Shown: positions 47,607-64,000, counted from the stretch's first letter. The stretch is 64,000 nucleotides of DNA from Sphingomonadales bacterium (GCA_016720115.1 JADJXT010000001.1:330806-394805); one strand, 5' to 3'. The notes: generated from the letters alone by a model not told the origin. Numbers and translations: made by a program.

Positions 47607-47609
47607 CAC

Positions 47610-48851: not shown

Positions 48852-48863
48852 AGGGCAAGGCTG

Positions 48864-49910: not shown

Positions 49911-49964
49911 ATGAAAATCGCGATGATCGGATCGGGCTATGTTGGCCTGGTATCGGGGGTGTAA
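49911..49964 (+). pseudogene. ugd: 5-prime remnant (17 codons) of UDP-glucose 6-dehydrogenase
   Basis: MKIAMIGSGYVGLVSGV-stop is the canonical NAD-fold N-terminus of Ugd. The reading frame ends where the IS-related sequence begins. Confidence 0.7.
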
Positions 49965-50770
49965 GCGCCATTTAGAAATGGCACCCCTCTGCTAGGTTTC
50001 GTGGACAAAGGTTGACATGGGGCTCGGAGGTTGATTCAAGGCTGTCTTTTGGGAGGCAGCTTTGGGCGAGCGGATTGGGTTATCGGACGATGAGTGGGCA
50101 TTGATCGGGCCATTGCTACCTTCTGAGCGAGGTCGGGGCTGCCGTCCTGCGCAGGATAACCGGCTGTATTTTGAAGGCATGATGTGGATGGCGCGGACGG
50201 GCGCGCAATGGCGTCAGTTGCCCGACGAATATGGCAAGTGGAACAGCGTCTTCCGCCGCTACCGACGATGGGTCGAGACCGGCGTGTTCGACGCGATGCT
50301 CGAAACGCTGGCGGAACTGGCGGAGCGAGACGCCACCGCCGACATGATCGACAGCACCGTGGTCCGGGCACATCATTGTGCAGTCGGCATAAAAAGGGGA
50401 CTCAGGAAGCCGAGGCGCTTGGCCGATCGCGTGGTGGCTTCACCACCAAACTCCACGCCCGGTGCGATGCCAAAGGCCGCCCGCTCGGCTTCGTACTGAC
50501 GCCCGGCCAGACCCACGACATCAATGGTTTTGCGCCGCTCTTCCGGATGATTACCGACAAGATCGAGGCGTTCCTGGCGGACAAGGGCTATGATGCCGAT
50601 GCCATCCGCGACGAGATCGCCAGGGCCGGGGTCGAGGCCGTCATCCCCGCCAAAAGCAATCGCAAAACGCCCGCGCCGCACGACCGGGGAAAGTATCGCT
50701 GGCGCAACCTCGTCGAGCGCCTGTTCAACAAGCTCAAGAACTGGCGCAGGGTCGCAAACCGATACGACAC
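49965..50770 (+). mobile_element. IS5-family (IS427-group-like) element, 3-prime truncated
   Basis: Two-frame transposase with an A-run slippery site. The left boundary is only approximate (49962-50000). The protein diverges from the family pattern right after ..NWRRVANRYD, so the right inverted repeat appears to be missing. Confidence 0.75.
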
Positions 50771-50807
50771 CAGCCAGATGCTGGACGGACAAGTCCAATT
50801 TTTGTAG
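50062..50807 (+). CDS. IS5-family DDE transposase OrfAB, requiring a -1 frameshift near 50389-50397; aberrant C-terminus
   Basis: TTG 50062 follows GGGAGG. OrfA reads LSDDEWALIGPLLP...WRQLPDEYGKWNSVFRRYRRW. A shift on ATAAAAAGG gives ..CAVGIKKGTQEAEALGRSRGGFTTKLH.., ADKGYDADAIR, and RNLVERLFNKLKNWRRVANRYD. The expected ~30 further residues are replaced by TSQMLDGQVQFL-stop. Confidence 0.8.
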
Positions 50808-50901
50808 TTAGCTGTTCAAACTTACATATGATCCGGTTCAGCGGCGCGTGCGACACTTTCGTTCATCGTTGCAATACCGAATCTTACCCCTAGGATGAAA
50901 C

Positions 50902-51954
50902 ATGCACATACTAGACCGCCATATCTCACCGTCCGAACGGCCTTATGTCATCGCCGAAGTTTCGGCCAATCACGGTGGCGAACTAAACCGGGCGCTCGAC
51001 ATGGTTGCTGCCGCTGCAGAAGCTGGGGCAAGTGCGGTAAAGTTTCAAACCTACACGGCGGACACCATTACCATCAAATGCGATCGCCCCGAATTTCGCA
51101 TTGAGAACCCGGACAGTTTGTGGAGCGGACGCACGCTCCATGACCTTTACGATGAAGCGCATATGCCCTGGGAATGGCATGCCCAATTGTTCGAAGAAGC
51201 GCGCCGGCAGGGCATTCATTCCTTTTCAAGCGCCTTTGATGAAACGGCCGTCGATTTTCTCGAGGCGCTCGATGCGCCTTGCTATAAGATTGCCTCTTTC
51301 GAGCATACATTCATTCCCTTGCTCGAAAAAGTCGCCGAAACGAAAAAGCCAATCATCGTGTCGTGCGGATTGGCAACGATGGACGATATTAGAGAGACCA
51401 CCCAAGCTTTGCGGAACGCAGCTTCTGGTCCGGTCTGCTTGCTCGCCTGTACCAGCAACTATCCCGCAGCTATCGAAGATAGCAACTTGAGGCGCATTCC
51501 GGCGCTCAGGGCCGCCTTTCCCGATTGTCAGATCGGATTGTCGGACCATACAATCGGAAATACGGCCGCCATCGCTGCAGTCGCGCTAGGTGCATGCGTC
51601 TTTGAAAAGCATTTCAAGCTTGCGGATGACAATAGTTCGGTTGACGCCGCCTTTTCAGCTACGCCTGAAGAGCTGCGCGATTACGTCAATGCAATCAACG
51701 ATGCCTGGTCTGCATTGGGGAAAGCCAAATTTGGCCCGGCCAGCGCAGCAGAGGCGCAATCGTCCCAATTTCGCCGATCAATCTATGTCGTTGCCGACAT
51801 AGAAGCAGGCGAGGCGTTTACCACAGAGAATATCCGTTGCATCCGGCCGGGGCTTGGCTTGCATAGCAAGCATTTCAAATCGGTTCTCGGGAAGACGGCG
51901 ACGCGCGCTATTGCATATGGTTCGCCGCTCAGCCTCGAACTCGTCTCTAACTGA
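50902..51954 (+). CDS. pseI: Pseudaminic acid synthase (NeuB-family nonulosonic acid synthase)
   Basis: YVIAEVSANHGG, AVKFQTYTADT, FSSAFDETAVDFLE, YKIASFE, and a C-terminal SAF/antifreeze-like domain. The Pse rather than Neu/Leg assignment relies on the neighbouring pseB/C/F/G/H genes. Confidence 0.8.
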   Translation: MHILDRHISPSERPYVIAEVSANHGGELNRALDMVAAAAEAGASAVKFQTYTADTITIKCDRPEFRIENPDSLWSGRTLHDLYDEAHMPWEWHAQLFEEARRQGIHSFSSAFDETAVDFLEALDAPCYKIASFEHTFIPLLEKVAETKKPIIVSCGLATMDDIRETTQALRNAASGPVCLLACTSNYPAAIEDSNLRRIPALRAAFPDCQIGLSDHTIGNTAAIAAVALGACVFEKHFKLADDNSSVDAAFSATPEELRDYVNAINDAWSALGKAKFGPASAAEAQSSQFRRSIYVVADIEAGEAFTTENIRCIRPGLGLHSKHFKSVLGKTATRAIAYGSPLSLELVSN

Positions 51955-53350
51955 GATAGGACAGAATTTTTACTGCCGCAGCCTGTTCAAGCGCGGTTTT
52001 ATCGGTGCCGTAAGAGGCATCGTAGCTTCGCATAACCGCGCGCCAGCCGGAGTTCGCATAGAATGCCTGCAGCTGGAAATACAGATCGTTGTTCCAGCCA
52101 TCCGTTTCATACACCAGATTCTGCTCTACAAAACCGTTATAGTCATAGTTGAGGGCATCAAGAGCATCCATATAAGCAACAGGCCGTCCACCCCGCAGTA
52201 TATTCATGGCAACACCGCTATTGCCGCAGAAAACCAGGTCGCAGGCGGTGATCTCTTCATCGAGAGGGTTTCCAAGGGTAATTTCGAGATTGTTGTAACG
52301 CGCAACAAGATCAGAAAAATCGGACTTGAGCAGGCCAACGGGATGGTTGCGTATCAATATCTCAGGCTGCGGCTGGCAGACACTGATCGCCTCAACCAGT
52401 GCCGAAACCGTTTCCGGGCGCGTAAGCGCCGTCAGGAAAATGCCGACCTTTTGTATGGATGCGCGCCATTCCATCGGGCGGGCCGCTCCAGGCTGCCCTA
52501 CTAGCACGACGGCCGCGCTGCACCGGCTGTGGCGTTCATAAGTTCTTCGGATCGCGTCACCGTAAAATACCGCGCAATCGGCGAGCACAGGCGGCACCAA
52601 TGCCCCATTCGCCGGAACAGGTGCATGGTTGAAATATATGACTTTGCGCCCAGCCTTATGGGCTGCTGCCGCAAGCCCCAGCGCCTCGGGGCTGTAATTG
52701 CTTGCAACAATCACCGCCTTCAGTCGGGTGTTCTGCTCCAACAGCAGTGAGAAGCAGATATAATATGCTAGTCCGCTGGCAATGCGGGCCGATGGCATGA
52801 AACTATATGCCTGCGCGAGTTGTGAAAGAAATGGCCATAATCGGACCGCTCGTCGCGTAAAATTTATTGCCGTGCGAAATTGACCCTTGTTCAGGATATG
52901 CCCTCGTTTCAGAGACAGGCGATGTATCTCTTGTCCTGGCACGAAAGCAGCAAAGCGCTCAATTGTATGGCGTTCGTTATCAAAATTGGCAATCGCGATC
53001 GCCGCAGCATTGCCGGAATCGCGTGGGCCGATCGAAACGGCGCATTTCAGCATGTACAGAAACAGAACCAATGGCTTCAGAACTTTTGAGTCCAAGCCTG
53101 CATAGAGTGCGTCGACTATCCGGTAGAGTGGATTCTTGTTCTTTATCTCGGTAAAAACCGCGCCACGCGTTGCAGACGTTTCCATGCGACGGATAATCCG
53201 CAGCGCCACTGCCAGATTGTAACGCTCGCGAGGGCGCTCGAGGGTGGCCTCGCACGTTGCCTCAAGGGGCTCGTATTCGGAGAGTTCCGTCCAGTTGAAG
53301 TTAGTATAGTCCACGATATCTCTTCCAAGCCTAGCTCGCGGTTCCAACAA
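51947..53350 (-). CDS. Hypothetical protein with KpsS/Capsule_synth-like C-terminal motifs; candidate CMP-ulosonic-acid (pseudaminyl) transferase
   Basis: 467 aa, no TM. EILIRNHPVG.. and LVFCGNSGVAMNILRGGRPVAYMDALDALNYDYNGF resemble the KpsS blocks (..VIKHHP.. and ..VVTINSTAGISAL..KP..G.ALYD..GL) as I remember them. It lies between pseI and the flippase gene. The function is inferred. Confidence 0.45.
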   Translation of the reverse strand: MLEPRARLGRDIVDYTNFNWTELSEYEPLEATCEATLERPRERYNLAVALRIIRRMETSATRGAVFTEIKNKNPLYRIVDALYAGLDSKVLKPLVLFLYMLKCAVSIGPRDSGNAAAIAIANFDNERHTIERFAAFVPGQEIHRLSLKRGHILNKGQFRTAINFTRRAVRLWPFLSQLAQAYSFMPSARIASGLAYYICFSLLLEQNTRLKAVIVASNYSPEALGLAAAAHKAGRKVIYFNHAPVPANGALVPPVLADCAVFYGDAIRRTYERHSRCSAAVVLVGQPGAARPMEWRASIQKVGIFLTALTRPETVSALVEAISVCQPQPEILIRNHPVGLLKSDFSDLVARYNNLEITLGNPLDEEITACDLVFCGNSGVAMNILRGGRPVAYMDALDALNYDYNGFVEQNLVYETDGWNNDLYFQLQAFYANSGWRAVMRSYDASYGTDKTALEQAAAVKILSYLS

Positions 53351-53469
53351 ACTGCTGGCATCACGACTTGACCCCTATATCGCAGGTAATTGTTAACAAA
53401 TTGGGTTTACGAACTGTTAGCCATAATCATAGCAACCGATGTGGGACTGGGATAGCAATCGTGTCGTCG

Positions 53470-54762
53470 ATGAAACACAGCTTGTTCAAAATGCGGGAAA
53501 AGGGCTATCTGGTGATGCAGTCGCTTTTCTATGCTGTGGCAAACAGCATAGAGGCGCTGGTGCCGTTTCTGCTAGCGCCTATCCTGACGCGCACCCTCAA
53601 CCCGAGCGAATATGGCATCTGGGTTCTCTTTATTACCTACGCTACATTTTTGCGCCCGATCGTCGGATTGACGACTCAGGATGCTATCCGGATGCGCTTT
53701 CTGGACTTTGACCAGAAACAGCTCGATCAGTTCACGCACACCGTGTTGTTCATCATGCTCACGATGGCTGCCATAGTTTCAGCCATTACATTCGCATTCA
53801 GCGGCCCGCTGGCGTCGGCTACAAAATTCCCTGCCAACTGGCTGGTCAGTGTGGTTATCGCCGCTTTCCTCTTTGAAGTATTTTATACTGCGCTTGCCCT
53901 GCTGCAGTTCCACCAGCGTCGCCGGGCCTTCTTGATGACCCAGGTCGTACAGGCGGTATTGAGCATGCTGCTGATATCGGCATTTCTTTATGCTGGCTGG
54001 GATTGGCGTGGTGTTGTTCTTGGACGCATGATCGGCATGGGGATCGCGACGCTGCTATCCTTGCGCTCGCTAGGGTATAGCCCTTCCATTTTCTTCCGTG
54101 TGCCGCAGCGTTCCTTTTATCGGGACATTGCTTCGTTCGGTGTGGTGTACTGGCCGGCCGGCATGGTCATCATGGCAGTTGCCATGACCGATAAGGTTGT
54201 GGCGGCCCATTATCTTGGTGTTTCTGCCAGCGCGATGTACGGCGTCGCCGCGCTGTTTGCGTCAGCCTACTGGATTGTAAATCACAGTTTTGTGCTCGCT
54301 TGGACTCCTTGGCTGTTCAAAAAGCTGAAGGCGTCTTCGGAAGACGGGATGCGCGAAGTCGTTTCGATTTCGATGCTTTATTTTATCCTGGCACCGATTG
54401 CAGCTGTTGCCTTTTATTTCATATCGCTGGTGGTCGCGCCGATCCTGCTTGGCGAAGCGTTCCACAGCGCAATTCCGCTGCTGCGCTATATAATGATAGC
54501 TATCGTTTTGCAGGGCTTCTTTGTTCACAACATGAAATACCTTCACTATGACAAGGATATACGGGTGATGTCCTTGTGCAGTGCGCTTACCATTGCCCTG
54601 AACATTGTGCTTAGCGTGCGCTGGGCGCCGGAAATGGGAATCCGCGGTATCATGCTTGCAACAGTAGTTTCTTTTGGCGCGACATTCCTGATAAGCGGAA
54701 TGATCGTTGTCGCTCGTTTCACCAATTTCCAAGGGGGAGTTAAGTCCGTTGTTTCACGATAA
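53470..54762 (+). CDS. Wzx-type flippase / polysaccharide biosynthesis protein (MOP superfamily), second copy
   Basis: 12-14 TM spans, N-terminus SLFYAVANSIEALVPFLLAPILTRTLNPSEYGIWVLF. The start was chosen at ATG 53470, and the ORF is open from 53368. Confidence 0.75.
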   Translation: MKHSLFKMREKGYLVMQSLFYAVANSIEALVPFLLAPILTRTLNPSEYGIWVLFITYATFLRPIVGLTTQDAIRMRFLDFDQKQLDQFTHTVLFIMLTMAAIVSAITFAFSGPLASATKFPANWLVSVVIAAFLFEVFYTALALLQFHQRRRAFLMTQVVQAVLSMLLISAFLYAGWDWRGVVLGRMIGMGIATLLSLRSLGYSPSIFFRVPQRSFYRDIASFGVVYWPAGMVIMAVAMTDKVVAAHYLGVSASAMYGVAALFASAYWIVNHSFVLAWTPWLFKKLKASSEDGMREVVSISMLYFILAPIAAVAFYFISLVVAPILLGEAFHSAIPLLRYIMIAIVLQGFFVHNMKYLHYDKDIRVMSLCSALTIALNIVLSVRWAPEMGIRGIMLATVVSFGATFLISGMIVVARFTNFQGGVKSVVSR

Positions 54763-55759
54763 AAGCATTCTCGTAACCGGTGGTACCGGTTCGTTCGGTC
54801 GCCGTTTCATCAAGACGCTCCTCGAGCGCTATAACGCGCGTCGTGTCATCGTGTTTTCGCGCGACGAGTTCAAACAATCGGTAATGCAGGAGAAGTATGA
54901 CGACCCTGCACTGCGCTACTTCTTGGGCGATATTCGTGATCGGGATCGTTTGATGCAGGCGATGGAAGGCGTGGATATTGTGGTTCATGCGGCAGCCCTC
55001 AAGCAGGTGCCCGCGCTCGAGTATAATCCCGCCGAAGCGATCAAAACCAACATTCACGGAACGGAAAATGTGGTCGCCGCGGCCTTGGCACACAACGTCG
55101 AGAAAGTGATCGCGCTTTCAACCGACAAGGCCGCGGCGCCGGTGAATCTATATGGCGCCACCAAGCTTACAGCGGAGAAAATTGCCATTTCTGCGAACAA
55201 TTTCGCTGGCAAGCGCGACACGCGGCTTTCGGTGGTGCGTTACGGCAACGTCATCGGATCGCGCGGTTCAGTCATTCCGCTTTTCCAGAAACTCCTGGCA
55301 GAAGGAGCCAAGGAATTCCCGATTACCGATCCCAACATGACCCGGTTCTTGCTGACCCTTCAGCAAAGTGTCGATTTCGTTATTGATTGCGGCGCGCGCA
55401 TGTGGGGTGGAGAGACCTTCATTCCACGTATCCCGTCTGCAACCATCGGGACCATGGCGGAGGCCATCGCACCTGACATGCCGCAGAAAGTGGTTGGCAT
55501 TCGTCCGGGCGAAAAACTGCACGAAGTGCTTTGCCTGCCGGATACTGCTTGGCAAACCATAGAGTTCGAACGGCATTTCGTGGTCAAACCGTCGTTCAAG
55601 TTCAACCGCATTGATGTTGACTATCTGACAGCGGCGAATGGAGAGAAGGGCAAGCCTGTCGCAGGTGACTTCGACTATAACTCGCTAAATAATGAGGACT
55701 ATATTTCGGCCGAAGCGTTGCGTGCGATGATCGAGCAAGCAATGCCTTTTGACGCCTGA
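54749..55759 (+). CDS. pseB: UDP-GlcNAc 4,6-dehydratase (inverting)
   Basis: TTG 54749 follows GGGGGAG (MFHDKSILVTGGTGSFG). VFSRDEFKQ, GDIRD, and catalytic STDKAAAPVNLYGATKLTAEK. Confidence 0.9.
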   Translation: MFHDKSILVTGGTGSFGRRFIKTLLERYNARRVIVFSRDEFKQSVMQEKYDDPALRYFLGDIRDRDRLMQAMEGVDIVVHAAALKQVPALEYNPAEAIKTNIHGTENVVAAALAHNVEKVIALSTDKAAAPVNLYGATKLTAEKIAISANNFAGKRDTRLSVVRYGNVIGSRGSVIPLFQKLLAEGAKEFPITDPNMTRFLLTLQQSVDFVIDCGARMWGGETFIPRIPSATIGTMAEAIAPDMPQKVVGIRPGEKLHEVLCLPDTAWQTIEFERHFVVKPSFKFNRIDVDYLTAANGEKGKPVAGDFDYNSLNNEDYISAEALRAMIEQAMPFDA

Positions 55760-55774
55760 TCGACAGGACAATAC

Positions 55775-56956
55775 GTGCGCAGCCGCATACCCTATAGCCG
55801 CCAGACAATCGACGATGCCGACATAGCCGCCGTTGCCGATTGCCTGCGTTCCGATTTCCTGACGCAAGGTCCGCAAACGCGGGCCTTTGAGGAGGCTGCG
55901 GCTGCCTATGTCGGCTGTGCGCACGCGATCGCCGTTTCGAATGGGACGGCCGCACTCCATCTTGTTTGCCAAGGCCTCGGGCTTGGGCCGGGCGGTCTTT
56001 TATGGACGTCCCCCAACAGCTTTGTCGCTTCGGCCAATGCCGGGCGCTATATGGGCGCGGACGTCGATTTCGTCGACATCGACCCGCAAACCGGCTCAAT
56101 CGACCCGGTCGCGCTCGAAGCAAAGCTGTCAAAAGCCCGCGCTGCAAACCGCAAGCCCGATATATTGATTGCCGTTCATTTTGCTGGGCACAGCTTTGGA
56201 TTTGATCGCGTTGCAGCATTATGTGCCGAATATGGGGTCGCGCTGGTTGAGGATGCGGCTCATGCATTTGGCGCAGCCTATGAAGACGATCCAATGCGCA
56301 AGGTTGGCAGCCATCCGCAAAGTGTGGCTACAACCTTCAGCTTTCACCCCCTGAAGTCGATTACCACCGGCGAGGGGGGAATGATTGTTACCTGGTCGGA
56401 CTCGCTCGCTCGTGATCTGGCCATGCTGCGCAGTCATGGGATTACCAAGGACTCCGCCATGATGACTCATATGCGTGAGGAAGACGGTGACTGGTATTAT
56501 GAACAGCACCTGCTAGGTTTCAATTACCGGATCTGCGATATTCAGGCTGCCCTTGGCGTTAGCCAGATGAAAAGAATCGATGCCTTCATGGCGGCGCGTC
56601 GTTTACGGGCACGGCGCTACGCAGAGCAGCTTTCCGGCCTGCCTTTGCACCTGCCGCTCGCAACCGACAGGTCATCCTGGCACCTGTATGTAGTGCGACT
56701 TGATCCGGGGCAAGCAAGTATTACGCGTCGGGCGCTGTTCGACAGGCTGCGCGGTGAACGCATCGAAGCCCATGTCCATTACATTCCGATCCATACCCAG
56801 CCCTATTACCGCAAACTGGGCTTCGCACCTGGCGACTTCCCGCAGTCCGAACATTATTATGAAAATTGCCTCAGCTTGCCGATCTATCCTCTGATGACAG
56901 ACGACGATCAGGATAGGGTGGTTGCCTGCCTGCGAGATGCACTTTTGTATGCGTAA
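55775..56956 (+). CDS. pseC: UDP-4-amino-4,6-dideoxy-N-acetyl-beta-L-altrosamine transaminase
   Basis: IPYSRQTIDDADIAAVADCLRSDFLTQGP and PLP-lysine block FSFHPLKSITTGEGGM. GTG start. Confidence 0.9.
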   Translation: MRSRIPYSRQTIDDADIAAVADCLRSDFLTQGPQTRAFEEAAAAYVGCAHAIAVSNGTAALHLVCQGLGLGPGGLLWTSPNSFVASANAGRYMGADVDFVDIDPQTGSIDPVALEAKLSKARAANRKPDILIAVHFAGHSFGFDRVAALCAEYGVALVEDAAHAFGAAYEDDPMRKVGSHPQSVATTFSFHPLKSITTGEGGMIVTWSDSLARDLAMLRSHGITKDSAMMTHMREEDGDWYYEQHLLGFNYRICDIQAALGVSQMKRIDAFMAARRLRARRYAEQLSGLPLHLPLATDRSSWHLYVVRLDPGQASITRRALFDRLRGERIEAHVHYIPIHTQPYYRKLGFAPGDFPQSEHYYENCLSLPIYPLMTDDDQDRVVACLRDALLYA

Positions 56957-57647
56957 TATAGCGATTGTGCAGGCCCGGATGGGTTCGTCGCGACTGCCGG
57001 GGAAGGTTCTGAAGCCACTAGCCGGACGGCCGGTTCTCGACCATGTTGTATCTAGGGTCGCCTCGACGGAACGCATTGACGGCGTTGTTGTCGCAACGTC
57101 TGTTTTGCCCGGCGATGACGCTATCGCCAATTATTGCGGAGAGAAAGGTTGGTCTTACGTCAGGGGGCCTGAGCGTGACGTATTGACGCGCTATGCCAGT
57201 GCGGTCCGGGCCTCCAGCGCGGACATCGTCGTACGTGTAACGAGCGACTGCCCGCTATTCTCACCACGAATCCTGGACGATATGCTCGCCGCATTCGATC
57301 CTTCCTGCATGGATTATATGTCGACCAACTGGCCTGAGCGTAGCTTTCCAATAGGCTTGGACTGTGAAATCATGCGTGGTGACAGCTTGCTCGAGATATC
57401 CGAAATCGCGACCGACCCCTATGATCGAGAACATGTAACTCCCTATTTCTATCGCAACCCTGATCGTTTCCGGCTTGTGGGGCATGCCTGCGCCCGCCCC
57501 CTGGATCATCTGAGCATAACACTTGATACTGCGGAGGATTATCAACGTCTGCTGGAACTGCTCGATGCCCATCCCGAACTTGTCGATCCGATGGTTGACG
57601 TTATAGAGATCGTTGCACGCCATTTTGACGCGGAGAGTTCCGCTTAA
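56949..57647 (+). CDS. pseF: Pseudaminic acid cytidylyltransferase (SpsF/PseF family)
   Basis: MRNIAIVQARMGSSRLPGKVLKPLAGRPVLDHVV, and EHVTPYFY near the C-terminus. ATG 56949 overlaps the pseC end by 8 nt. Confidence 0.85.
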   Translation: MRNIAIVQARMGSSRLPGKVLKPLAGRPVLDHVVSRVASTERIDGVVVATSVLPGDDAIANYCGEKGWSYVRGPERDVLTRYASAVRASSADIVVRVTSDCPLFSPRILDDMLAAFDPSCMDYMSTNWPERSFPIGLDCEIMRGDSLLEISEIATDPYDREHVTPYFYRNPDRFRLVGHACARPLDHLSITLDTAEDYQRLLELLDAHPELVDPMVDVIEIVARHFDAESSA

Positions 57648-57667
57648 TATTGGGCAGGACGAAGCGG

Positions 57668-59176
57668 TCAGTCAATGCGTTTCGCAGCATCAAGCCAATC
57701 GGGCCGCTCGGTCGACTGCCGAATATCGAACCCGGCATCTCGATGCAGCCTTTCGGATGCCGTATTTGCACTGTGGATTTTGCTAACGATGCGGTTAACC
57801 GACGGATGTGATAGGTGCAGCGCCCGTTCAGCAGCGCAGTACAGGGGCAAGCCCATCCGCCTTCCGTGCCAAGCGGGCACGAGATAAATGGATAGATAGG
57901 CACAGGCACCGCCATCACTAAGATCAAATCGAACTACGCCGACTGGTTCACCACCTCGTGTGAAGACACGAAAAACGCAATCTGGGTCGACTAGCTGCTC
58001 GCCAAGCCAAGTGACGTGAGCGCCAAATTGAGGTTTTTCCGAGCCATCCCAATTGTGCTGCCAGTTCCGCTCATCGGTTCGCCAATCCAGCAAATCACGA
58101 GCATCCCCAGCCTCCACGTTCCTGAAATCCAATGCCAGCGCCTTTATCCATGAGGCTAAGCGGATTGCTCCCCGTCCGTCGACAATTTGGGGGCCAAGGT
58201 CTGACAGCTTCTTTCGGAGCGCTTCATCGGACACAAGCCACAAAATGCCTCGCGCGATTGATGCGGCATCTACTTCTGAATAATGACCCAGATAGCATAC
58301 AGCCTCAGCGGCCACCATGGTTTTAATTTGTGGCAGTTGGTTTTCCGCAGTCGATATAACAAGCGATGGAAGTCCGAGACATAGGCGCTCCCACAACATC
58401 ACCCCGCCCGCCCCAAGAGCTATATCGGCTGTAGCCATCAGTTCGGCGACGTCTTTCTGGGAGGGCTGTCTGTGCAGGTTTATGTGCGGCAACTGTGAGA
58501 TGGGGTCGAACAACGCCGGGTCAATTCGCGCCCCAGGGCCGAGCACAACATCAACGTCCATCTGATCCAGAGTTGCAACAGCTTCCAGCGCCTTGGCCGT
58601 CTCTCCAGTAGGATCGCTGCCGCCGAAGCAGATGTTGAGCCGGAGTCGCGTATGGCTGCTCGGCCGGGTACCGTTTGCCAACTGCACGATATGGTGAGAC
58701 AGAGGCAGGTAGGCAGACCCGGCGAGCAGGATGCCTTGGCGTTTCCGCCTCACACTGCCGTGCGGTCGAACGATAATGTCCGCAGCGTCCGCCGCATCGA
58801 GATCGTCAAGCACCACAAGCGGTTTCTCTGCGGTGGCAGTCTCGACTTCCCATTGCGATACCCAACCATATTGGTCGAGGAGCAGAACCTCTGGGTGCCA
58901 ACCGTGTCGATCCATAGCCTGCATCGTTGCCACCGGGTCGACCTCCGCCGGAGATAATACCAAAACCTGTGTCTCAACCGGGAAATATGCCTCTGAATAA
59001 GAAGCGCCCTCTGCATTTGTGACCAGCAATATCTCGGTATCGCCACTCGTTGCCAAGGCATTGGCCACGGCTGATGTCCGGGCAAAATGCCCCATGCCGA
59101 CAGTTGCGCCTGCATCGGCGCGGATGGCGACCTTAATCGGCGCGGACATAATATGTAAATCGAATATGGCGTCCAT
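57668..59176 (-). CDS. pseG/pseH: Fused PseG (UDP-2,4-diacetamido-2,4,6-trideoxy-altropyranose hydrolase) and PseH (GNAT N-acetyltransferase)
   Basis: The N-terminal ~340 aa is GT-B/GT28-like (KVAIRADAGATVGMGHFARTSAVANAL ... GGSDPTG ... ADIALGAGGVMLWERLCLGLPSLV). The C-terminal ~150 aa is GNAT (FRNVEAGDARDLLDWRTDE ... VPAWHGRRMGLPL ... SANTASERLHRDAGF). The start may be ATG 59149. Confidence 0.8.
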   Translation of the reverse strand: MDAIFDLHIMSAPIKVAIRADAGATVGMGHFARTSAVANALATSGDTEILLVTNAEGASYSEAYFPVETQVLVLSPAEVDPVATMQAMDRHGWHPEVLLLDQYGWVSQWEVETATAEKPLVVLDDLDAADAADIIVRPHGSVRRKRQGILLAGSAYLPLSHHIVQLANGTRPSSHTRLRLNICFGGSDPTGETAKALEAVATLDQMDVDVVLGPGARIDPALFDPISQLPHINLHRQPSQKDVAELMATADIALGAGGVMLWERLCLGLPSLVISTAENQLPQIKTMVAAEAVCYLGHYSEVDAASIARGILWLVSDEALRKKLSDLGPQIVDGRGAIRLASWIKALALDFRNVEAGDARDLLDWRTDERNWQHNWDGSEKPQFGAHVTWLGEQLVDPDCVFRVFTRGGEPVGVVRFDLSDGGACAYLSIYLVPAWHGRRMGLPLYCAAERALHLSHPSVNRIVSKIHSANTASERLHRDAGFDIRQSTERPDWLDAAKRID

Positions 59177-60653
59177 TGTAGGTAGTCACTGGGCGATACT
59201 GCTGAAGGATGGAATTAAACCTTGAATCTTCTGAGAGTGCCTGGTTCCAGTCGATTGCAATGTGCCGCAAAGGCCAACGGGAAGTGCGGTCGACGATCAG
59301 CACATCAGGGGGCGTATCTTCCCAAAGCTGCAGCATTTGATTGTGCAGCATTTTTCGACCAGGCTCTTTCAGCTTGATTGGGGGCAGTAACTTTCCGACA
59401 TTCTCATGCTTATCAAACGGCTTGAGTTCAGCAGCAACATAGGCATTGTTCATCAACGGCGTCCACCGAAGTCCACCGTGCATGACGATATATTCGTTAT
59501 AGGGTGACGGATGAGCGTTCAGGAGCGCGACTTTTTTACCTGCTACCGATTGGCCGCTTTCGCTGATGGCCCTTTCCAGTTCATCCAGACGGTCGTGATA
59601 TTCCAGTGTTGCGCGGAATTGTGTTTGAATGGAAAACAGCAGATACAGCCCAAGCGCAAAATTGGCCCACAGTCGGAAACTTTTTGCATTGGCCCACCAC
59701 CACATCACATAGATCATTATAATCGGGAAGAGATGGTGGGAAAACCAGCGCTCTTGCGCCCAAGCAGCGATCACCGCACCAGTTGCGGCGGCAAAAAACA
59801 ATAACGTGTCCCGAATCGGCGCGCCAAATATCCGCGAGACAAACAACAGGGCAAACGCTGGCAACATGTTGACCGCTGCCTTGATCCAGTTTGCAGTCGG
59901 GTCAACCAGCGCAGCATCGATAGCGCTGAACATAGCGCCAAATGTTGCGCGCTGTACTGGATCGAGACCCAGCCATAAGAACAGGTAAAGGAAAACGACG
60001 GAACCAGCCACGACGTTCTCGGTTCGAAAAAGCGAGCTTGGTTTGCGTTGTAGGCCGGCATCGGCAAGTTCGACCAGCACAACTACCATACTATATAGAT
60101 ATTTGAAAAGTAATGTGAAGCCTATCCACAGACCCAATATTGCTCTCAAGGGCCGACCTATCCGTTTTGAGTTTGGGTCGGAAACGCGCAGGATCAAATA
60201 TGGCCAGAGTCCGGCCACGACGATATGCTCGCGCAGTCCAAAGACATTTTTGAAAAGTATTGGCAAAACAGCAAGAACAGCCACTGAAATGACCAAGAAC
60301 GCGGGCGATGCACCGACTGTGGTGCGGCGTATATAATATGCTAGCGCTGCGCTAAAGAGTACCGCTGCGCCAGCCATTGCAACGACAACAAGATCGAGTC
60401 GTGTCCCGGTCGCATCGCTAATTCGCGTTCCCAGCGAAAACCAGAGCTTCTCAACTGGCGGAAAATAGATGCCGTAATTGTGGAACGCGCCGCCCAAGAC
60501 GATGGAGAGACGACCCGATAGTGCACTGCCAGCTAGATCTTGATGGATCGGATAATAGGCACCGTAAAACAGAAGGGTAATCACAAATAGGGCGGCTGCA
60601 ATGCCCATATGCAGCCCCAAATCGGCGACGAAATTCAACTTTTGGGGCGGCAT
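59133..60653 (-). CDS. Polytopic membrane protein with C-terminal soluble domain; GT-C-like (ArnT/PMT-type) by architecture only
   Basis: About 11-12 TM spans followed by a hydrophilic domain of about 150 aa (..YHDRLDELERAISESGQSVAGKKVALLNAHPSPYNEY..). ATG 60653 follows GAGG, and the ORF is open to 60719. No diagnostic motif was recognised. Confidence 0.45.
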   Translation of the reverse strand: MPPQKLNFVADLGLHMGIAAALFVITLLFYGAYYPIHQDLAGSALSGRLSIVLGGAFHNYGIYFPPVEKLWFSLGTRISDATGTRLDLVVVAMAGAAVLFSAALAYYIRRTTVGASPAFLVISVAVLAVLPILFKNVFGLREHIVVAGLWPYLILRVSDPNSKRIGRPLRAILGLWIGFTLLFKYLYSMVVVLVELADAGLQRKPSSLFRTENVVAGSVVFLYLFLWLGLDPVQRATFGAMFSAIDAALVDPTANWIKAAVNMLPAFALLFVSRIFGAPIRDTLLFFAAATGAVIAAWAQERWFSHHLFPIIMIYVMWWWANAKSFRLWANFALGLYLLFSIQTQFRATLEYHDRLDELERAISESGQSVAGKKVALLNAHPSPYNEYIVMHGGLRWTPLMNNAYVAAELKPFDKHENVGKLLPPIKLKEPGRKMLHNQMLQLWEDTPPDVLIVDRTSRWPLRHIAIDWNQALSEDSRFNSILQQYRPVTTYNGRHIRFTYYVRAD

Positions 60654-60905
60654 ATTACCTCTGCATTGGGGATGCTCAAAGCCGATGGCACCATTATTAT
60701 CATGCTTCAAAATGCACAATGGCTAAGTCGCTATTGATAAATGGTTTTATAGGATAGGTATCGTTGAGCGAATTGCCCGCTCCAAGATAGCGCGGAGCTG
60801 ACTGCTCAAGCAAAAATTGAACTTCATGAACAAACTTTACTCGCGAAATCGGGTTGGACGCATTAGACGCAGGCACAGAATATGTCTCTCTAGTCAGACA
60901 GGCTT

Positions 60906-62054
60906 ATGGAATTGAACAGCAAGCAGAAATATCGAGTCCTGAGCGTCTTTGGAACGCGCCCGGAAGCCATAAAGATGGCGCCTGTGGTCAAGGCGCTGGC
61001 GTTTGCCGATGATATTGACGGACGAGTTTGCGTTACCGCGCAGCATCGCGAAATGCTGGATCAGGTGCTCGATCTGTTTGCGATCAAGCCGGAGTACGAC
61101 CTGAACCTGATGAAGCCGGGCCAGGGGCTTGAAGATATTACTGCGGGCGTGTTGAAGCTTTTGACGCCTGTGCTGGACGATTTCCAGCCTCAGCTGGTGC
61201 TGGTCCACGGTGATACCACCACCACTCTGGCAGCGTCTCTGGCGGCCTATTACCGACGGATTCCTGTCGGACATGTGGAGGCAGGTTTGCGAACCGGCAA
61301 CATTTTGTCGCCCTGGCCGGAGGAGGTGAACCGCAAGGTAGCTGGCGCGATCGCCAGCCTGCATTTCGCGCCGACCGAACAATCGAAACGCAATTTGCTC
61401 GCCGAAGCGGTCCCCGATGCCGCTATTTTGGTGACGGGCAACACGGTAATCGATGCTCTTTTGGAGGTGGTTGATCGGCTGGAGAGCGATCCCAAACGCA
61501 TGGCCGGGTTTGAACAGCGTTTCCAACTGGATCCGGGCAAACGGATGATTCTGGTAACGGGCCATCGCCGGGAAAGCTTTGGCGATGGATTTCTTCGTAT
61601 CTGCGAGGCACTCGCCAGTCTCGCAGCGCGTGATGATGTCGAAATCGTCTATCCCGTCCATCTCAATCCCAATGTCAAAGGACCGGTGGAAGAAAGATTG
61701 AGCGGCTTTCCCAATGTGCATTTGATCGAACCCCAGGACTATCTGCCCTTTGTCTATCTGATGAGCCGGGCATATGTCATTTTGACCGATTCCGGCGGGG
61801 TGCAGGAAGAGGCCCCTTCACTGGGCAAACCGGTGCTGGTCATGCGCGATACCACGGAAAGGCCCGAGGCGGTCGAGGCCGGTACCGTCCGCCTGGTTGG
61901 CACGGATACCAGACTGATTGTTTCCGAAGTCTGCCGCCTGCTGGATGACCAGGATGCCTATGACGCGATGAGCGTGGCGCACAATCCTTATGGAGATGGC
62001 AAGGCCGTTGACCGGATATTAAACCGGATCCGGCAATATGCTGCGGAACAATAG
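60906..62054 (+). CDS. wecB: UDP-N-acetylglucosamine 2-epimerase (non-hydrolysing)
   Basis: [42 protein letters not shown] and [21 protein letters not shown]. Confidence 0.9.
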
Positions 62055-62071
62055 ACCAGCTTGCGAATCCG

Positions 62072-63343
62072 ATGGACCTGAACCGCTTCTCCACTATTTC
62101 GATCATTGGCCTTGGCTATATCGGCTTGCCGACCGCCGCGATGTTTGCGTCGCGCAAGATCAGGGTCATCGGCGTCGATGTGAACGAGGATACGGTTGAT
62201 ACCATCAACCGGGGCGAGATCCACATTGTCGAGCCTGACCTGGACATGGTGGTTCATGCAGCCGTTGCACAAGGCTATTTGCGTGCAACCGTTGCCCCTG
62301 AACCTGCCGAGGCATTTCTGATTGCGGTGCCGACGCCGTTCAAGGGCGACAATCATGAGCCTGATCTGCGGTTCATCGAGGCCGCCTGCCGGTCGATCGC
62401 ACCGGTACTGGAACCCGGCAATCTCGTGATTTTGGAGTCAACCTCGCCGGTCGGTGCGACGGAAGCGATGGCGGAATGGCTGGCGCAGGCACGGCCCGAC
62501 CTGACTTTCCCCCAGAAAGCGGGCGAATTGTCCGATATCCGCATTGCCCATTGCCCCGAACGGGTTTTGCCCGGCAAGGTGATGCAGGAACTGATTTCCA
62601 ATGACCGCGTGATTGGCGGCATGACGCCTCGCTGCTCCGCGCTTGCGGCGCAGCTTTACAGCGTCTTCGTTACCGGAGAGTGCGTTACCGCCTCAAGCCC
62701 GAGGGTAGCGGAAATGGCAAAGCTGACCGAAAACAGCTTTCGGGATGTGAACATCGCTTTTGCCAATGAATTGTCGATTATCTGTGACAAATTTGGCATC
62801 AGTGTCTGGGAACTGATCCAGCTCGCCAACCGCCATCCGCGCGTCAATGTGTTACAGCCGGGTGCGGGAGTCGGTGGGCATTGCATCGCCTGCGATCCCT
62901 GGTTCATCGTTTCCTCGGCGCCGGAAGAGGCGCGGCTGATCCGCACCGCGCGCGAAGTCAATGATGCCAAACCGTATTGGGTGCTCGACAAGATCCGGTC
63001 TGAAACCTGCAAGATTCTGGAATCCTCTGCCGGAAGAAGCGCGGCAGACCTCAGCATTGCTTGCTATGGCATTGCGTTCAAACCCGATATCGATGATCTG
63101 CGCGACAGCCCGGCGCTGGAGATCGTGCAAAGCCTGACGCAAAGCCATCCGGGTTCGGTACTGGTTGTGGAGCCCAATATCGAAGTGCTGCCGGAATCGT
63201 TGAATGGTGCGAGGCTGGTTTCCATGCTCGATGCGGCAGAGGCCGATCTGCATGTGCTGCTGGTCGATCATAAATATTTCCGGGCGTTGAAGCCCAATAC
63301 TTCTGCCATGATTATCGACACCCGCGGGATCTGGACCCGTTAA
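62072..63343 (+). CDS. wecC: UDP-N-acetyl-D-mannosamine dehydrogenase
   Basis: ISIIGLGYIGLPTAAMFA and catalytic block GAGVGGHCIACDPWF. It lies immediately downstream of wecB. Confidence 0.9.
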   Translation: MDLNRFSTISIIGLGYIGLPTAAMFASRKIRVIGVDVNEDTVDTINRGEIHIVEPDLDMVVHAAVAQGYLRATVAPEPAEAFLIAVPTPFKGDNHEPDLRFIEAACRSIAPVLEPGNLVILESTSPVGATEAMAEWLAQARPDLTFPQKAGELSDIRIAHCPERVLPGKVMQELISNDRVIGGMTPRCSALAAQLYSVFVTGECVTASSPRVAEMAKLTENSFRDVNIAFANELSIICDKFGISVWELIQLANRHPRVNVLQPGAGVGGHCIACDPWFIVSSAPEEARLIRTAREVNDAKPYWVLDKIRSETCKILESSAGRSAADLSIACYGIAFKPDIDDLRDSPALEIVQSLTQSHPGSVLVVEPNIEVLPESLNGARLVSMLDAAEADLHVLLVDHKYFRALKPNTSAMIIDTRGIWTR

Positions 63344-63371: not shown

Positions 63372-63432
63372 CCTTTCCGCAAGGTTGGGCGCCATTGTCG
63401 CGATGACCTCTGCTTGACCTCTATTCAAAACA

Positions 63433-63447
63433 GAACATAATATGAAC
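63433..63447. promoter_or_regulatory. Alphaproteobacterial LexA (SOS) box GAAC-N7-GAAC
   Basis: GAACATAATATGAAC read directly. It lies immediately upstream of the imuA-like reading frame. Confidence 0.75.
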
Positions 63448-63449
63448 AA

Positions 63450-64000
63450 ATGCGAGTCGGCGATTCTCTTTTTTCTGCTCTCAAGGGCAAAACTGGCCTT
63501 TTGCGGGTCGGGCCGCAGCATGCCTTCTGTAACCCGCAGCGGGGGCTGAGGCGGTGGGCAAGCGGGGTGGGTTCGCTCGATACGGCGCTGGCAGGCGGGC
63601 TGGCCTATGGGCGCGTGCATGAATTTTATGCCGCGCAGGGGGAGGATGCACCGGCGACGGCCGGTTTCGCGCTAGCCCTTCTGGCGGCCATGGGCGGAGG
63701 CGAGGGTGGCGCGCGCGCTACGCTCTGGCTGCGTTCGCGCCGCGCGGTGCAGCAGGCGGGCGTGGTGCAGGCCAATGGCTGTGCGGAACTGGGCGGGCGG
63801 TCTGATGCCTGCCTTTTTGCCATGATTGCCGACACGAAGGAACTGCTCAAGGCTGCCGTCGACGGGCTGCGTAGTGGGGCATTGGGTGCGGTCGTTGTCG
63901 AAACGCAAGGGAGCCTTCCCGATCTGGACCTGACCGCGAGCCGCCGCCTCGCACTGGCTGCCGAGAAATCGGGGACGACGCTCTTCCTGCTGTGCAGCGG
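63450..64000 (+). CDS. imuA: ImuA-like SOS mutagenesis protein, 3-prime end outside the window
   Basis: The frame is open from ATG 63450 to the window end. It is not in the ORF track because no stop is reached. ..GSLDTALAGGLAYGRVHEFYAAQGEDAPATAGFALALLA...LLKAAVDGLRSGALGAVVVE..LDLTASRRLALAAEKSGTTLFLL matches the RecA-fold ImuA pattern. The start codon is uncertain, with TTG 63501 and GTG 63567 as alternatives. Confidence 0.7.
   Translation, partial: MRVGDSLFSALKGKTGLLRVGPQHAFCNPQRGLRRWASGVGSLDTALAGGLAYGRVHEFYAAQGEDAPATAGFALALLAAMGGGEGGARATLWLRSRRAVQQAGVVQANGCAELGGRSDACLFAMIADTKELLKAAVDGLRSGALGAVVVETQGSLPDLDLTASRRLALAAEKSGTTLFLLCS

Follow-up and report, generated by a model that had tools for sequence, protein, structure and literature searches.

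In a 64,000-nucleotide stretch of Sphingomonadales bacterium DNA (GCA_016720115.1, JADJXT010000001.1:330806-394805; hereafter the window), we identified a conserved eight-gene pseudaminic acid (Pse) cassette (50762–60748, no strand assigned) that comprises pseB, pseC, pseF, a pseG-H fusion and pseI together with a MOP flippase, a GT-B protein and a GT-C protein. Beyond the cytoplasm, the two transferases and the flippase probably link Pse to a surface molecule in a way so far undescribed for this class of sugar. The cassette is complete and widely conserved, and with somewhat less than even confidence we read it as a self-contained and horizontally mobile unit for extracytoplasmic pseudaminylation.

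The gene content given for positions 50902–63343 in a preliminary description was recovered: our searches identified pseI, pseB, pseC, a cytidylyltransferase of the CTP_transf_3 family, a PseG fused to a GNAT domain, one MOP flippase, wecB and wecC in this range, together with two proteins that match no Pfam or NCBIfam family. All six activities of CMP-Pse synthesis have candidates. Three of these exceed their equivalog cutoffs: the inverting UDP-GlcNAc 4,6-dehydratase PseB (54707–55759, plus strand; TIGR03589, E 4e-144, 479.5 bits, cutoff 408), the aminotransferase PseC (55775–56956, plus strand; TIGR03588, E 2.4e-143, 477.6 bits, cutoff 424) and the Pse synthase PseI (50902–51954, plus strand; TIGR03586, E 1.3e-135, 451.8 bits, cutoff 340; NeuB and SAF Pfam domains). 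A cytidylyltransferase (56922–57647, plus strand; PF02348 CTP_transf_3, E 3.6e-29) is the presumed CMP-Pse synthetase PseF; it has a weak, N-terminal match to TIGR03584 (PseF) and a position that is conserved in all cassettes. The pseG-pseH fusion (57668–59176, minus strand) joins a UDP-sugar hydrolase domain (TIGR03590, PseG, E 6.4e-41, 140.8 bits, cutoff 153.6) to a GNAT N-acetyltransferase domain (PF13302, E 3.8e-9; weak match to TIGR03585, PseH); the assignment of PseH, like that of PseF, draws solely on its domain family and a conserved position. As shown by homology, PseB, PseC, the fused PseH/PseG, PseI and the cytidylyltransferase make CMP-pseudaminic acid. Compared with the PseB/C/H/G/I/F pathway of Helicobacter and Campylobacter, the genes here include a PseG–PseH fusion and a weakly PseF-like cytidylyltransferase, and are interleaved in a fixed order with the transferase and flippase genes.

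The preliminary description drew this module from an insertion sequence (IS) seam to the end of wecC, and comparison with related loci moved these boundaries. The unit is 50762–60748, defined by a 10,008-nt blastn alignment (78% identity) to the closest relative, locus L003, with colinearity beginning at 50762. The seam itself stands: an IS5-family element (49963–50762, plus strand; transposase NF033580, E 1e-41), cut short on its right side near 50762, borders the cassette on the left, and its junctions were recovered from four independent DNA metagenomes, in which the junction unitigs have single-copy depth and the body of the IS two to three times as much. We looked for terminal inverted repeats of the element and found none. 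Metatranscriptomes show that the module is not silent – transcription is patchy, with RNA contigs that cover all genes and leave the multi-copy IS almost bare.

At the other end, wecB (60906–62054, plus strand; non-hydrolysing UDP-GlcNAc 2-epimerase, TIGR00236, E 1.2e-153) and wecC (62072–63343, plus strand; UDP-ManNAc dehydrogenase, NF008286, E 3.7e-212, 704 bits) are an adjacent facultative insertion relative to L003, not part of the core cassette. L003 lacks both genes, and its GT-C gene directly abuts imuA. Across about 19 loci, wecB-wecC lie beside the GT-C/MOP/GT-B triad in four and are absent from about 15; they are adjacent only in L005, L012 and L023.

Although the gene set had been described as incomplete-looking, it recurs elsewhere as a complete unit. 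Gene-neighbourhood comparison showed that the GT-B, GT-C, flippase and Pse genes co-travel as one cassette across many genomes, with the same genes in the same order in L001–L004, L006, L007, L009, L011, L012, L025 and L030. The complete cassette has unrelated surroundings from locus to locus (L001, L002, L003, L004, L006, L009, L011, L012, L025 and also L030) and was found intact in many Sphingomonadales, in one Rhodobacterales MAG and in L030, a 39%-GC organism. Its hosts include LPS-less sphingomonads as well as LPS-bearing lineages. A Rhizobiaceae MAG (L022) carries the bare triad alone among unrelated neighbours, and in an Erythrobacter-type variant the GT-C and MOP/GT-B genes flank a different set of nonulosonic acid genes. 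In L002, PAP2-type phosphatases lie beside the GT-C gene and a T2SSE-family ATPase gene adjoins the cassette.

The flippase is the best-conserved member of the triad, with 62–93% identity to the window across genome loci (41% in L030 and 36% in L028), followed by the GT-B protein (46–76%), which is at least as conserved as the GT-C protein (46–78%, and 23% in L030). In L028 the GT-B (31% identity) and MOP proteins are orthologous to those of the window, but they are paired with another polytopic GT-C (PMT_2 match, E 5e-5), one that has no homology to the window GT-C.

Consistent with the preliminary description, we detected no Bac_transf, GT2, GT4, Wzy_C or ABC/Kps families in 50902–63343. Homologues of Bac_transf, GT2, GT4, Wzy_C and Wzc were likewise absent from the 30 related loci (522 kb in total), and phosphoglycosyl transferase (PGT) Pfam families, WecA-type initiating transferases included, were absent from the four Pfam-annotated loci. 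KpsMT-type ABC transporter and KpsDE families were found neither in the region nor within the cassette of annotated related loci, and no outer-membrane export or chain-length genes co-travel with the cassette. Left of the IS seam, just outside the range described, lies a Wzx/Wzy-type locus (PGT, GT2, GT4, Wzy-like proteins and Wzc) that includes a Bac_transf initiating transferase (27803–28411) and a Wzy_C-family protein (46158–47606, E 4.5e-18). Homologues of this left locus are absent from all 30 related cassette loci, its Wzy_C protein never travels with the cassette among them, and nothing inside the cassette matches Wzy_C or TIGR04370.

The module had been read as one without glycosyltransferases, but both of its unassigned proteins model as glycosyltransferase folds, GT-B and GT-C. 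The first (51947–53314, minus strand; the ORF extends to 53350 and the 455-aa form matches P0001) is confidently modelled as GT-B (AlphaFold2 pLDDT 82, pTM 0.80) and belongs to a new family that numbers 941 representatives; we propose that it is a CMP-Pse-dependent transferase, which charges a lipid-linked acceptor with Pse. It has no Pfam or NCBIfam match, and a PDB profile search returned nothing relevant. Foldseek gave 223 matches at E≤1e-3, MurG among them, and the best 50 are generic GT-B enzymes and epimerases, with no KpsC, WbbB or KrkA structure in that set. The earlier label ‘KpsS-like’ found no support: the window protein has no Capsule_synth match, one of 31 close family members matches at E 0.053, and none of 48 distant members does. 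TagB-type families were also missing from the Pfam matches of the 31 close (E up to 5) and 48 distant (E up to 0.1) members.

Across 48 family sequences, down to 21% identity, H242 and H336 are invariant. H336 belongs to an R334-x-H336-P337 motif, with R334 and P337 at least 90% conserved, placed by the AlphaFold2 model after a beta-strand of the second Rossmann domain. In bacterial GT-B sialyltransferases, CMP is bound by the HP motif (PMC5420450, citing Freiberger 2007). Of the traits of these CMP-nonulosonate-dependent enzymes, the HP motif in the C-terminal nucleotide-binding domain is thus present in the window GT-B, and the D/E-D/E-G motif was not seen on reading its sequence.

The second protein (59133–60653, minus strand; the ORF extends to 60719 and the 506-aa form matches P0121) had been listed as an unclassified polytopic membrane protein. 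Its gene and pseG-H, both on the minus strand, share 44 nt. Though without a Pfam match, it is confidently modelled as a GT-C glycosyltransferase (pLDDT 89, pTM 0.87) of a new family, with 11 predicted transmembrane helices and a C-terminal domain of about 140 aa that helix count and loop charges place outside the cytoplasm. All of its real Foldseek matches – AftD (E 6.4e-4), STT3 (4.3e-3), PglB (3.7e-2) and ALG3 – are GT-C enzymes, which is moderate support (best E 6.4e-4, TM 0.37–0.41). Among 34 orthologues, H59, E90, R163, E164, K206, E217, R324, H328 and H329 are invariant, H59 and E90 lying in the predicted first periplasmic loop; D61, which would be the obvious catalytic Asp, is not retained by the most distant orthologue. 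The third member of the triad (53470–54762, plus strand; the ORF opens at 53368, with a likely ATG start at 53470) is a Wzx-like MOP-superfamily flippase (Polysacc_synt, PF01943, E 2.7e-9) with about 10 hydrophobic segments.

Every step after CMP-Pse we infer. Our best reading, held at a little below an even chance, is a periplasmic glycosylation system like the three-component systems GtrA/GtrB/GtrC, ArnC/ArnEF/ArnT and that of Citrobacter. At the cytoplasmic face, the soluble GT-B, with its sialyltransferase-type H-P motif, would use CMP-Pse to charge a lipid carrier in the membrane with Pse, the simplest candidate being undecaprenyl phosphate; the lipid-linked Pse would be flipped by the Wzx-like MOP protein; and the GT-C would transfer it at the periplasmic face to a polysaccharide, glycolipid or protein made elsewhere. 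That the nonulosonic acid crosses the inner membrane as a lipid-phosphate-linked monosaccharide before GT-C transfer is a slightly more tentative proposal. To our knowledge, no lipid-phosphate-linked nonulosonic acid has been described, and we know of no GT-B enzyme that glycosylates a polyprenyl phosphate. Such a route needs no initiating phosphoglycosyl transferase, Wzy or exporter, which would explain their absence.

As in the three-component systems, the genes for a cytoplasmic enzyme, the flippase and a GT-C lie together in the cassette without those for an initiating transferase or a polymerase, and the donor-building parts are more conserved than the GT-C. The exchanged GT-C of L028 and the higher conservation of MOP and GT-B fit this pattern, in which the GT-C varies with the acceptor. 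The dedicated flippase of such systems has its counterpart in the MOP/Wzx-like gene, which is always adjacent, and the periplasm-facing GT-C in the protein so predicted by AlphaFold2 fold, Foldseek and topology. A MATE-family flippase likewise partners a GT136 GT-C in the pentofuranose system of Citrobacter youngae, a precedent for combining a MOP/MATE flippase and a GT-C with a charging enzyme outside GT2 (PMC11127046). The cassette differs from the three-component systems in its sugar, a CMP-activated nine-carbon nonulosonic acid with its own six-activity pathway; in its presumed charging enzyme, a new-family GT-B in place of a GT2 or phosphoribosyltransferase; and in a GT-C that matches no Pfam GT-C family, with a lipid-linked intermediate that is hypothetical. 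The cassette contains no classical polyprenyl-phosphate-charging GT2 of the GtrB/ArnC type, and the GT-B is the sole candidate for this step.

Two groups of enzymes offer parallels to the GT-B. It resembles the Tannerella forsythia Pse/Leg transferases Tanf_01245 and TFUB4_00887 in being a soluble GT-B-type protein that has an HP motif, measures about 450 aa and is encoded next to CMP-Pse genes; their acceptor, a ManNAcA residue, echoes the recurrent wecB-wecC neighbours here (PMC5420450). The Tannerella enzymes are described as TagB-like, with DXD and D/E-D/E-G motifs, and belong to a conventional pathway in which their substrate is an Und-PP-linked O-glycan (PMC5420450), whereas the window GT-B lacks the D/E-D/E-G motif and any TagB-type family match and is always paired with a GT-C. 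A CMP-ulosonic-acid donor, presumed for the GT-B, is common to KpsS and KpsS1, the latter a GT118 pseudaminyltransferase of Acinetobacter baumannii (PMC12887879). The window GT-B is set apart from KpsS, KpsC and KpsS1 (Capsule_synth, GT107/GT118) in having no Capsule_synth signal, no solved GT99, GT107 or GT140 module in its PDB profile search or among its best 50 fold matches, and no KpsMT/DE genes. KpsS puts Kdo onto phosphatidylglycerol, a precedent for a soluble enzyme that adds an ulosonic acid directly to a membrane lipid.

Three explanations had been offered for the module, and an undescribed assembly route built on its two unassigned proteins fits best, given that these co-travel with the flippase and Pse genes. 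The ManNAcA part of that idea does not hold: the distribution of wecB-wecC means that the route concerns Pse and not a Pse/ManNAcA glycan. Dependence on genes elsewhere holds for the acceptor and the lipid carrier. Decoration of the product of the left locus may apply to the acceptor in this genome, which could be that polysaccharide or, with wecB-wecC next door, a ManNAcA-containing glycan; it cannot define the module, since the cassette occurs elsewhere without that locus.

The strongest rival to lipid-phosphate-linked Pse, though unlikely, is an Und-PP route in which a WecA- or WbaP-type housekeeping enzyme encoded elsewhere primes the lipid as Und-PP-sugar, the GT-B adds a Pse cap in the cytoplasm, the Wzx-like protein exports the resulting short Und-PP-glycan and the GT-C acts as an oligosaccharyltransferase or ligase that delivers it en bloc to protein or lipid. 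Und-PP-linked oligosaccharides are the classical cargo of Wzx-type flippases, a point in favour of this route, as would be the Polysacc_synt identity of the flippase and the GT-C's structural matches to the oligosaccharyltransferases STT3 and PglB. GT-B enzymes, moreover, commonly use Und-PP-linked acceptors, as does MurG, one of the fold matches; the window contains a Bac_transf PGT, and PAP2-type phosphatases adjoin the GT-C in L002. Against this, in none of the 30 loci, the bare triad of L022 included, does a PGT or further glycosyltransferase accompany the cassette; the C-terminal domain of the GT-C is small; and so highly conserved a flippase points to a single cargo that is simple and invariant. 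Wzx/Wzy-dependent O-antigen and capsule assembly resembles the cassette in its Wzx-like flippase and, in the window, its location beside such a locus, but differs in its initiating transferase, Wzy and chain-length regulator, none of which occurs in or co-travels with the cassette.

We consider it improbable that the GT-C uses flipped lipid-linked Pse as both donor and growing acceptor to build oligo- or poly-Pse. GT-C arabinosyltransferases that build arabinan and the poly-Pse K antigens of rhizobia are analogues, and AftD, an arabinofuranosyltransferase, is the GT-C's closest structural match. With Pse as its sole sugar the cassette is self-sufficient, and its occurrence in very different envelopes follows most readily if it can do without a specific foreign acceptor. 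Against this, outer-membrane export and chain-length genes do not co-travel with it; this polymerisation is a sub-case of the preferred periplasmic transfer and inseparable from it by sequence.

Less probable again is that the cassette merely supplies CMP-Pse, and wecBC UDP-ManNAcA, to the repeat unit of the left locus, giving a hybrid repertoire with two flippases and two proteins unrelated to Pse transfer. Physical proximity to a Wzx/Wzy-type locus and the known linkage of Pse to ManNAcA in Tannerella forsythia (PMC5420450) favour this idea. It is contradicted by a junction that is an IS-truncation seam, by a closest relative whose cassette lacks wecBC, and by GT-B, MOP and GT-C genes that are interleaved and co-inherited with the Pse genes in every locus, while left-locus homologues are missing from all 30. 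Pse is the classical flagellin glycan and a T2SSE-family ATPase adjoins the cassette in L002, but cytoplasmic glycosylation of flagellin or pilin, as in Campylobacter, Helicobacter, Aeromonas and Caulobacter, is very improbable – no Maf- or FlmG-type transferase or flagellar genes are linked, and a flippase and periplasm-facing GT-C are unnecessary in the cytoplasm.

If the preferred lipid-phosphate-linked route is correct, it would establish a new class of lipid-linked sugar donor and two new families: a GT-B ‘polyprenyl-phosphate pseudaminyltransferase’ and a GT-C ‘periplasmic pseudaminyltransferase’. The cassette would then be a mobile plug-in that gives diverse bacteria a sialic-acid-like surface without a dedicated polysaccharide pathway.

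Pfam and NCBIfam searches bore out the gene content first listed for positions 50902-63343 – pseudaminic acid (Pse) genes, one Polysacc_synt/MOP flippase, wecB and wecC. The pseI, pseB and pseC genes all exceed NCBIfam equivalog cutoffs and are accompanied by a CTP_transf_3 cytidylyltransferase and a PseG-GNAT fusion; by homology, this set is predicted to make CMP-Pse. The preliminary description had also noted that Bac_transf, GT2, GT4, Wzy_C and ABC/Kps families are absent from the interval and, as a literal observation, this holds. Two ORFs, 51947-53350(-) and 59133-60719(-), matched no Pfam or NCBIfam family. Searching both proteins and every member of three homologue alignments (A1, A2 and A3) at permissive thresholds likewise assigned no family, and PDB sequence-profile searches with the two proteins returned nothing meaningful. 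Each has more than 200 homologues (52-79% identity), nearly all labelled hypothetical and several from Sphingopyxis or Parasphingorhabdus, and homologues of the two occur on shared contigs; a search using A3 recovered mainly close relatives.

We predicted the structures of both proteins from alignments A1 and A2. The model of the 467-aa protein (51947-53350(-); pLDDT 82, pTM 0.80) adopts a predicted GT-B fold, with 223 matches to PDB folds at E≤1e-3 that are topped by UDP-GlcNAc 2-epimerases, BshA, CalG1, SnogD, MurG and GtfB. An exhaustive profile search placed it in a sizeable uncharacterized family with 941 representatives at E≤1e-3, 123 of them at E≤1e-30. Across 48 family members down to 21% identity, H242 and H336 alone are invariant, while R334, P337 and a GNS stretch are almost so. 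The protein’s R-x-H-P resembles the HP motif of bacterial GT-B sialyltransferases, which according to a passage in PMC5420450 (citing Freiberger 2007) binds CMP. An earlier ‘KpsS-like’ label for this protein did not survive: Capsule_synth matched just one of 31 members (E 0.053), the PDB profile search was empty and the fold matches lie elsewhere, so that by the tests run here it is not a member of the KpsS family.

The second protein is encoded by a 528-aa ORF, or 506 aa from the likely start (59133-60653(-)). Its model (pLDDT 89, pTM 0.87) has eleven transmembrane helices and a C-terminal alpha/beta domain of ~140 aa. The genuine structural matches of the 528-aa ORF were solely GT-C enzymes – AftD (E 6.4e-4), yeast and human STT3, PglB and ALG3 – with the remaining matches at TM near 0.1, and the protein matched none of the Pfam GT-C families. 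Helix count and loop charges suggest that its first long loop and C-terminal domain are periplasmic. H59, E90, R163, E164, K206, E217, R324, H328 and H329 are invariant among 34 orthologues. D61, a candidate universal catalytic aspartate, is invariant in 31 close orthologues only and was dropped once the orthologue from a distant locus, L030, was added.

The proposal that the two unassigned proteins form the basis of an undescribed assembly route gained support from gene-neighbourhood comparison, in which both co-travel with the flippase and the Pse genes. A Sphingopyxis MAG contig and a 1.44-Mb JGI contig (both gene-annotated) share all eight genes and their order with the window but have unrelated flanks, and neither contains wecBC or an initiating phosphoglycosyl transferase. 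Scanning one genome per species yielded 23 loci, mostly in Sphingomonadales and also in Rhizobiaceae, Hyphomicrobiales and Amylibacter MAGs; culturable carriers include Erythrobacter sp. NAP1, E. rubeus KMU-140 and Pontixanthobacter rizhaonensis RZ02. Classed from a tblastn table, the arrangements are of three kinds: the full cassette (L001-L004, L006, L007, L009, L011, L012, L025); an Erythrobacter-type arrangement, flanked by the same GT-C and MOP/GT-B genes but with a different set of nonulosonic acid (NulO) genes between them (L013, L014, L016-L019, L021, L024); and a bare GT-C/MOP/GT-B triad (L005, L022, L023 and, on a short contig, L020). The L022 triad has no sugar genes around it and is bordered on one side by an ABC-uptake system and on the other by 7 kb without long ORFs, possibly an rRNA operon. 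We conclude that the eight genes very probably constitute one conserved functional unit, with the two unassigned proteins as its transferases.

The limits of this unit are clearest from its closest relative, L003 (73-96% protein identity), which is colinear with window 50762-60748 in a single 10-kb alignment and whose GT-C side runs directly into a homologue of window 63412-64000 (the imuA region). The cassette thus spans 50762-60748, and wecB-wecC is a 2.6-kb insertion relative to L003; a search for direct repeats flanking the insertion found none. Together with the tblastn locus table, this colinearity rules out wecB-wecC as core genes, as which they had initially been counted. Four of about 19 independent loci have wecBC beside the triad – the window (60906-63343), L005, L012 and L023/L026 – and none of the four contains a ManNAcA transferase. 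The L023 operon that contains wecB-wecC also encodes a MarR regulator and a distinct NulO pathway comprising a PseB-like enzyme, an aminotransferase and a fusion of CTP_transf_3 with an aldo/keto-reductase. Because a Tannerella forsythia O-glycan contains a Pse-(2-4)-ManNAcA linkage (PMC5420450), an acceptor containing ManNAcA is a reasonable guess by analogy. Past wecC, GC returns to 0.615 (window 63400-64000) in sequence homologous to the cassette neighbour in L003, where the imuA-region homologue is followed by genes for proteins of 599 and 1093 aa; judging from the translated sequence, we tentatively take these for an imuA-imuB-dnaE2-type cluster. The end of wecC is the right edge of a low-GC glycan island at ~22-63.4 kb.

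More distant loci retain much of the cassette. L030, the sole locus from a metagenome scan with a single protein query, comes from a 39% GC organism and has a complete cassette (identity 41% for the flippase, 37% for GT-B and 23% for GT-C, E 2e-29). L028 is more distant still and keeps GT-B (31%), the flippase (36%, E 4e-87) and the Pse genes, with formyltransferases; its sugar is possibly N-formylated Pse. The polytopic partner in L028 (517 aa, with FVDD following TM1 and a PMT_2 hit at E 5e-5) shows no homology to the window GT-C by hhalign and is a different GT-C. Positions 1-21302 of L028 add two GT87 GT-C enzymes, a small GT2, a PIG-L deacetylase, two formyltransferase domains and a 12-TM protein without family, and the locus looks like one for multi-step periplasmic glycosylation. 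Two unrelated organisms have a predicted ArsP_1-family permease at most a few kb from the triad or cassette (L022 6245-7285, L030 3879-5024), maybe by coincidence. A YadA-like trimeric autotransporter adhesin adjoins pseI in L003 (20590-21584) and in L002 the genes immediately upstream of GT-C (515-2636) encode two PAP2_3 phosphatases; either might hint at the acceptor or at recycling.

We tentatively favor a model in which Pse travels on a lipid monophosphate. The GT-B protein would load a lipid carrier from CMP-Pse at the cytoplasmic face, the MOP protein would flip the lipid-linked product and the GT-C protein would transfer Pse to a periplasmic acceptor. This model fits a self-sufficient cassette whose sole two transferase folds are a cytoplasmic GT-B and a periplasm-facing GT-C, with a flippase between them. 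To our knowledge, characterized GT-C enzymes all use polyprenyl-phosphate-linked donors (see also PMC11127046), and a CMP-sugar can yield a monophosphate-linked but not a diphosphate-linked product; both points argue for the model, as does the fact that in the loci compared an initiating phosphoglycosyl transferase never accompanies the cassette. The flippase is the most conserved component, followed by GT-B, which is at least as conserved as GT-C. This order and the GT-C swap in L028 mirror three-component periplasmic glycosylation systems, in which the components that build the donor are conserved, whereas the GT-C changes with the acceptor. Further support comes from pentofuranoses, for which the combination of a MATE/MOP flippase with a GT-C and a charging enzyme other than a GT2 has been demonstrated (PMC11127046). 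The cassette would work like the three-component systems, though it lacks the GT2 charging enzyme that classically helps to define them, and its class of sugar and its two transferase families are different.

Other considerations count against the lipid-monophosphate model: we know of no GT-B enzyme that glycosylates a polyprenyl phosphate and of no described lipid-linked nonulosonic acid, and Wzx proteins classically carry Und-PP-oligosaccharides. These points make the main rival a short Und-PP-linked glycan, which a housekeeping transferase would prime and GT-B would cap with Pse before it is flipped and transferred en bloc by GT-C; we consider this route unlikely, if far from negligible. 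Periplasmic polymerization of Pse appears improbable. Least credible are flagellin glycosylation and a role for the Pse genes as a supply module for module 1, the Wzx/Wzy-type polysaccharide locus left of the IS seam; homologues of the window Bac_transf, GT2, GT4, Wzy_C and Wzc proteins occur in none of 30 loci (522 kb). By the tests run here, the cassette is neither a Wzx/Wzy pathway nor a Kps system. Full-text literature searches on pseudaminic and nonulosonic acids in connection with GT-C enzymes, polyprenol, undecaprenyl phosphate and sphingomonad genera turned up no description of a Pse or other NulO system that uses a GT-C.

The Wzy-like function called missing nearby is provided just outside the module as first delimited, 3.3 kb to its left, by a Wzy_C-family protein with 10 TM (46158-47606(+), E 4.5e-18). 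After it come a 413-aa protein that has a single TM at its N terminus and matches no family (47610-48851(+)), then an SDR epimerase (48864-49883(+)), and this plus-strand operon (46158-49883) is truncated by the IS. Left of the cassette, module 1 has its own Bac_transf initiating transferase (27803-28411, Pfam), GT2 and GT4 enzymes and a second flippase; Wzc lies at 43758-45959. A 454-aa ORF at 31816-33180, which has 11 hydrophobic segments, matches nothing in Pfam and shows the lowest GC in the window (0.40), probably encodes the Wzy polymerase of module 1. Module 1 also has genes resembling a UDP-diacetamido-mannuronic acid pathway, and an AsnB-type amidotransferase.

The seam itself is an IS5-family element (~49963-50762) with its right end cut off, in which we looked for terminal inverted repeats and found none. 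It interrupts ugd, leaving the first 16 codons (49912-49960), MKIAMIGSGYVGLVSG. RNA and DNA contigs sharing the 50 nt of this remnant have different upstream sequence and run on into an intact ugd (…ACFADFGHDV), which implies a second complete ugd copy or an IS-free variant in the community. An assembly artefact was ruled out, as unitigs in four independent DNA metagenomes bridge the IS junctions at the single-copy depth of the flanks, with the IS body at 2-3x.

The possibility that the module is transcriptionally silent was also rejected, with caveats. Contigs from four metatranscriptomes cover parts of every cassette gene, both unassigned genes included, at ≥99% identity and low depth; the metatranscriptomes come from the same bioreactor study as the DNA, and contig depth reflects expression poorly. 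These RNA runs leave the IS nearly without coverage, yet in DNA it is 2-3x more abundant than its flanks, which argues against simple DNA carry-over. One metatranscriptome contig (run X25, 54624-55047) has 13 differences from the window across the MOP/pseB junction, indicating that a second, closely related cassette variant is expressed in the same reactor.

Pse and related NulOs affect how phages, grazers and immune systems see bacterial surfaces, and NulOs are abundant in the extracellular polymers of wastewater sludge. The described NulO routes known to us are all cytoplasmic – onto Und-PP-linked repeat units, capsules or O-glycans, or directly onto flagellin. If confirmed, extracytoplasmic addition of Pse by a compact, transferable cassette with a flippase and a GT-C would open a new route for these sugars, and the cassette could serve as a portable glycoengineering tool. 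It would bring in two further glycosyltransferase families, of which the GT-B one by itself comprises 941 cluster representatives, and would account for the ‘incomplete’ look of many environmental Pse loci. Culturable carriers make the idea directly testable and, if a lipid-phosphate-Pse intermediate is real, it would represent a new donor chemistry.
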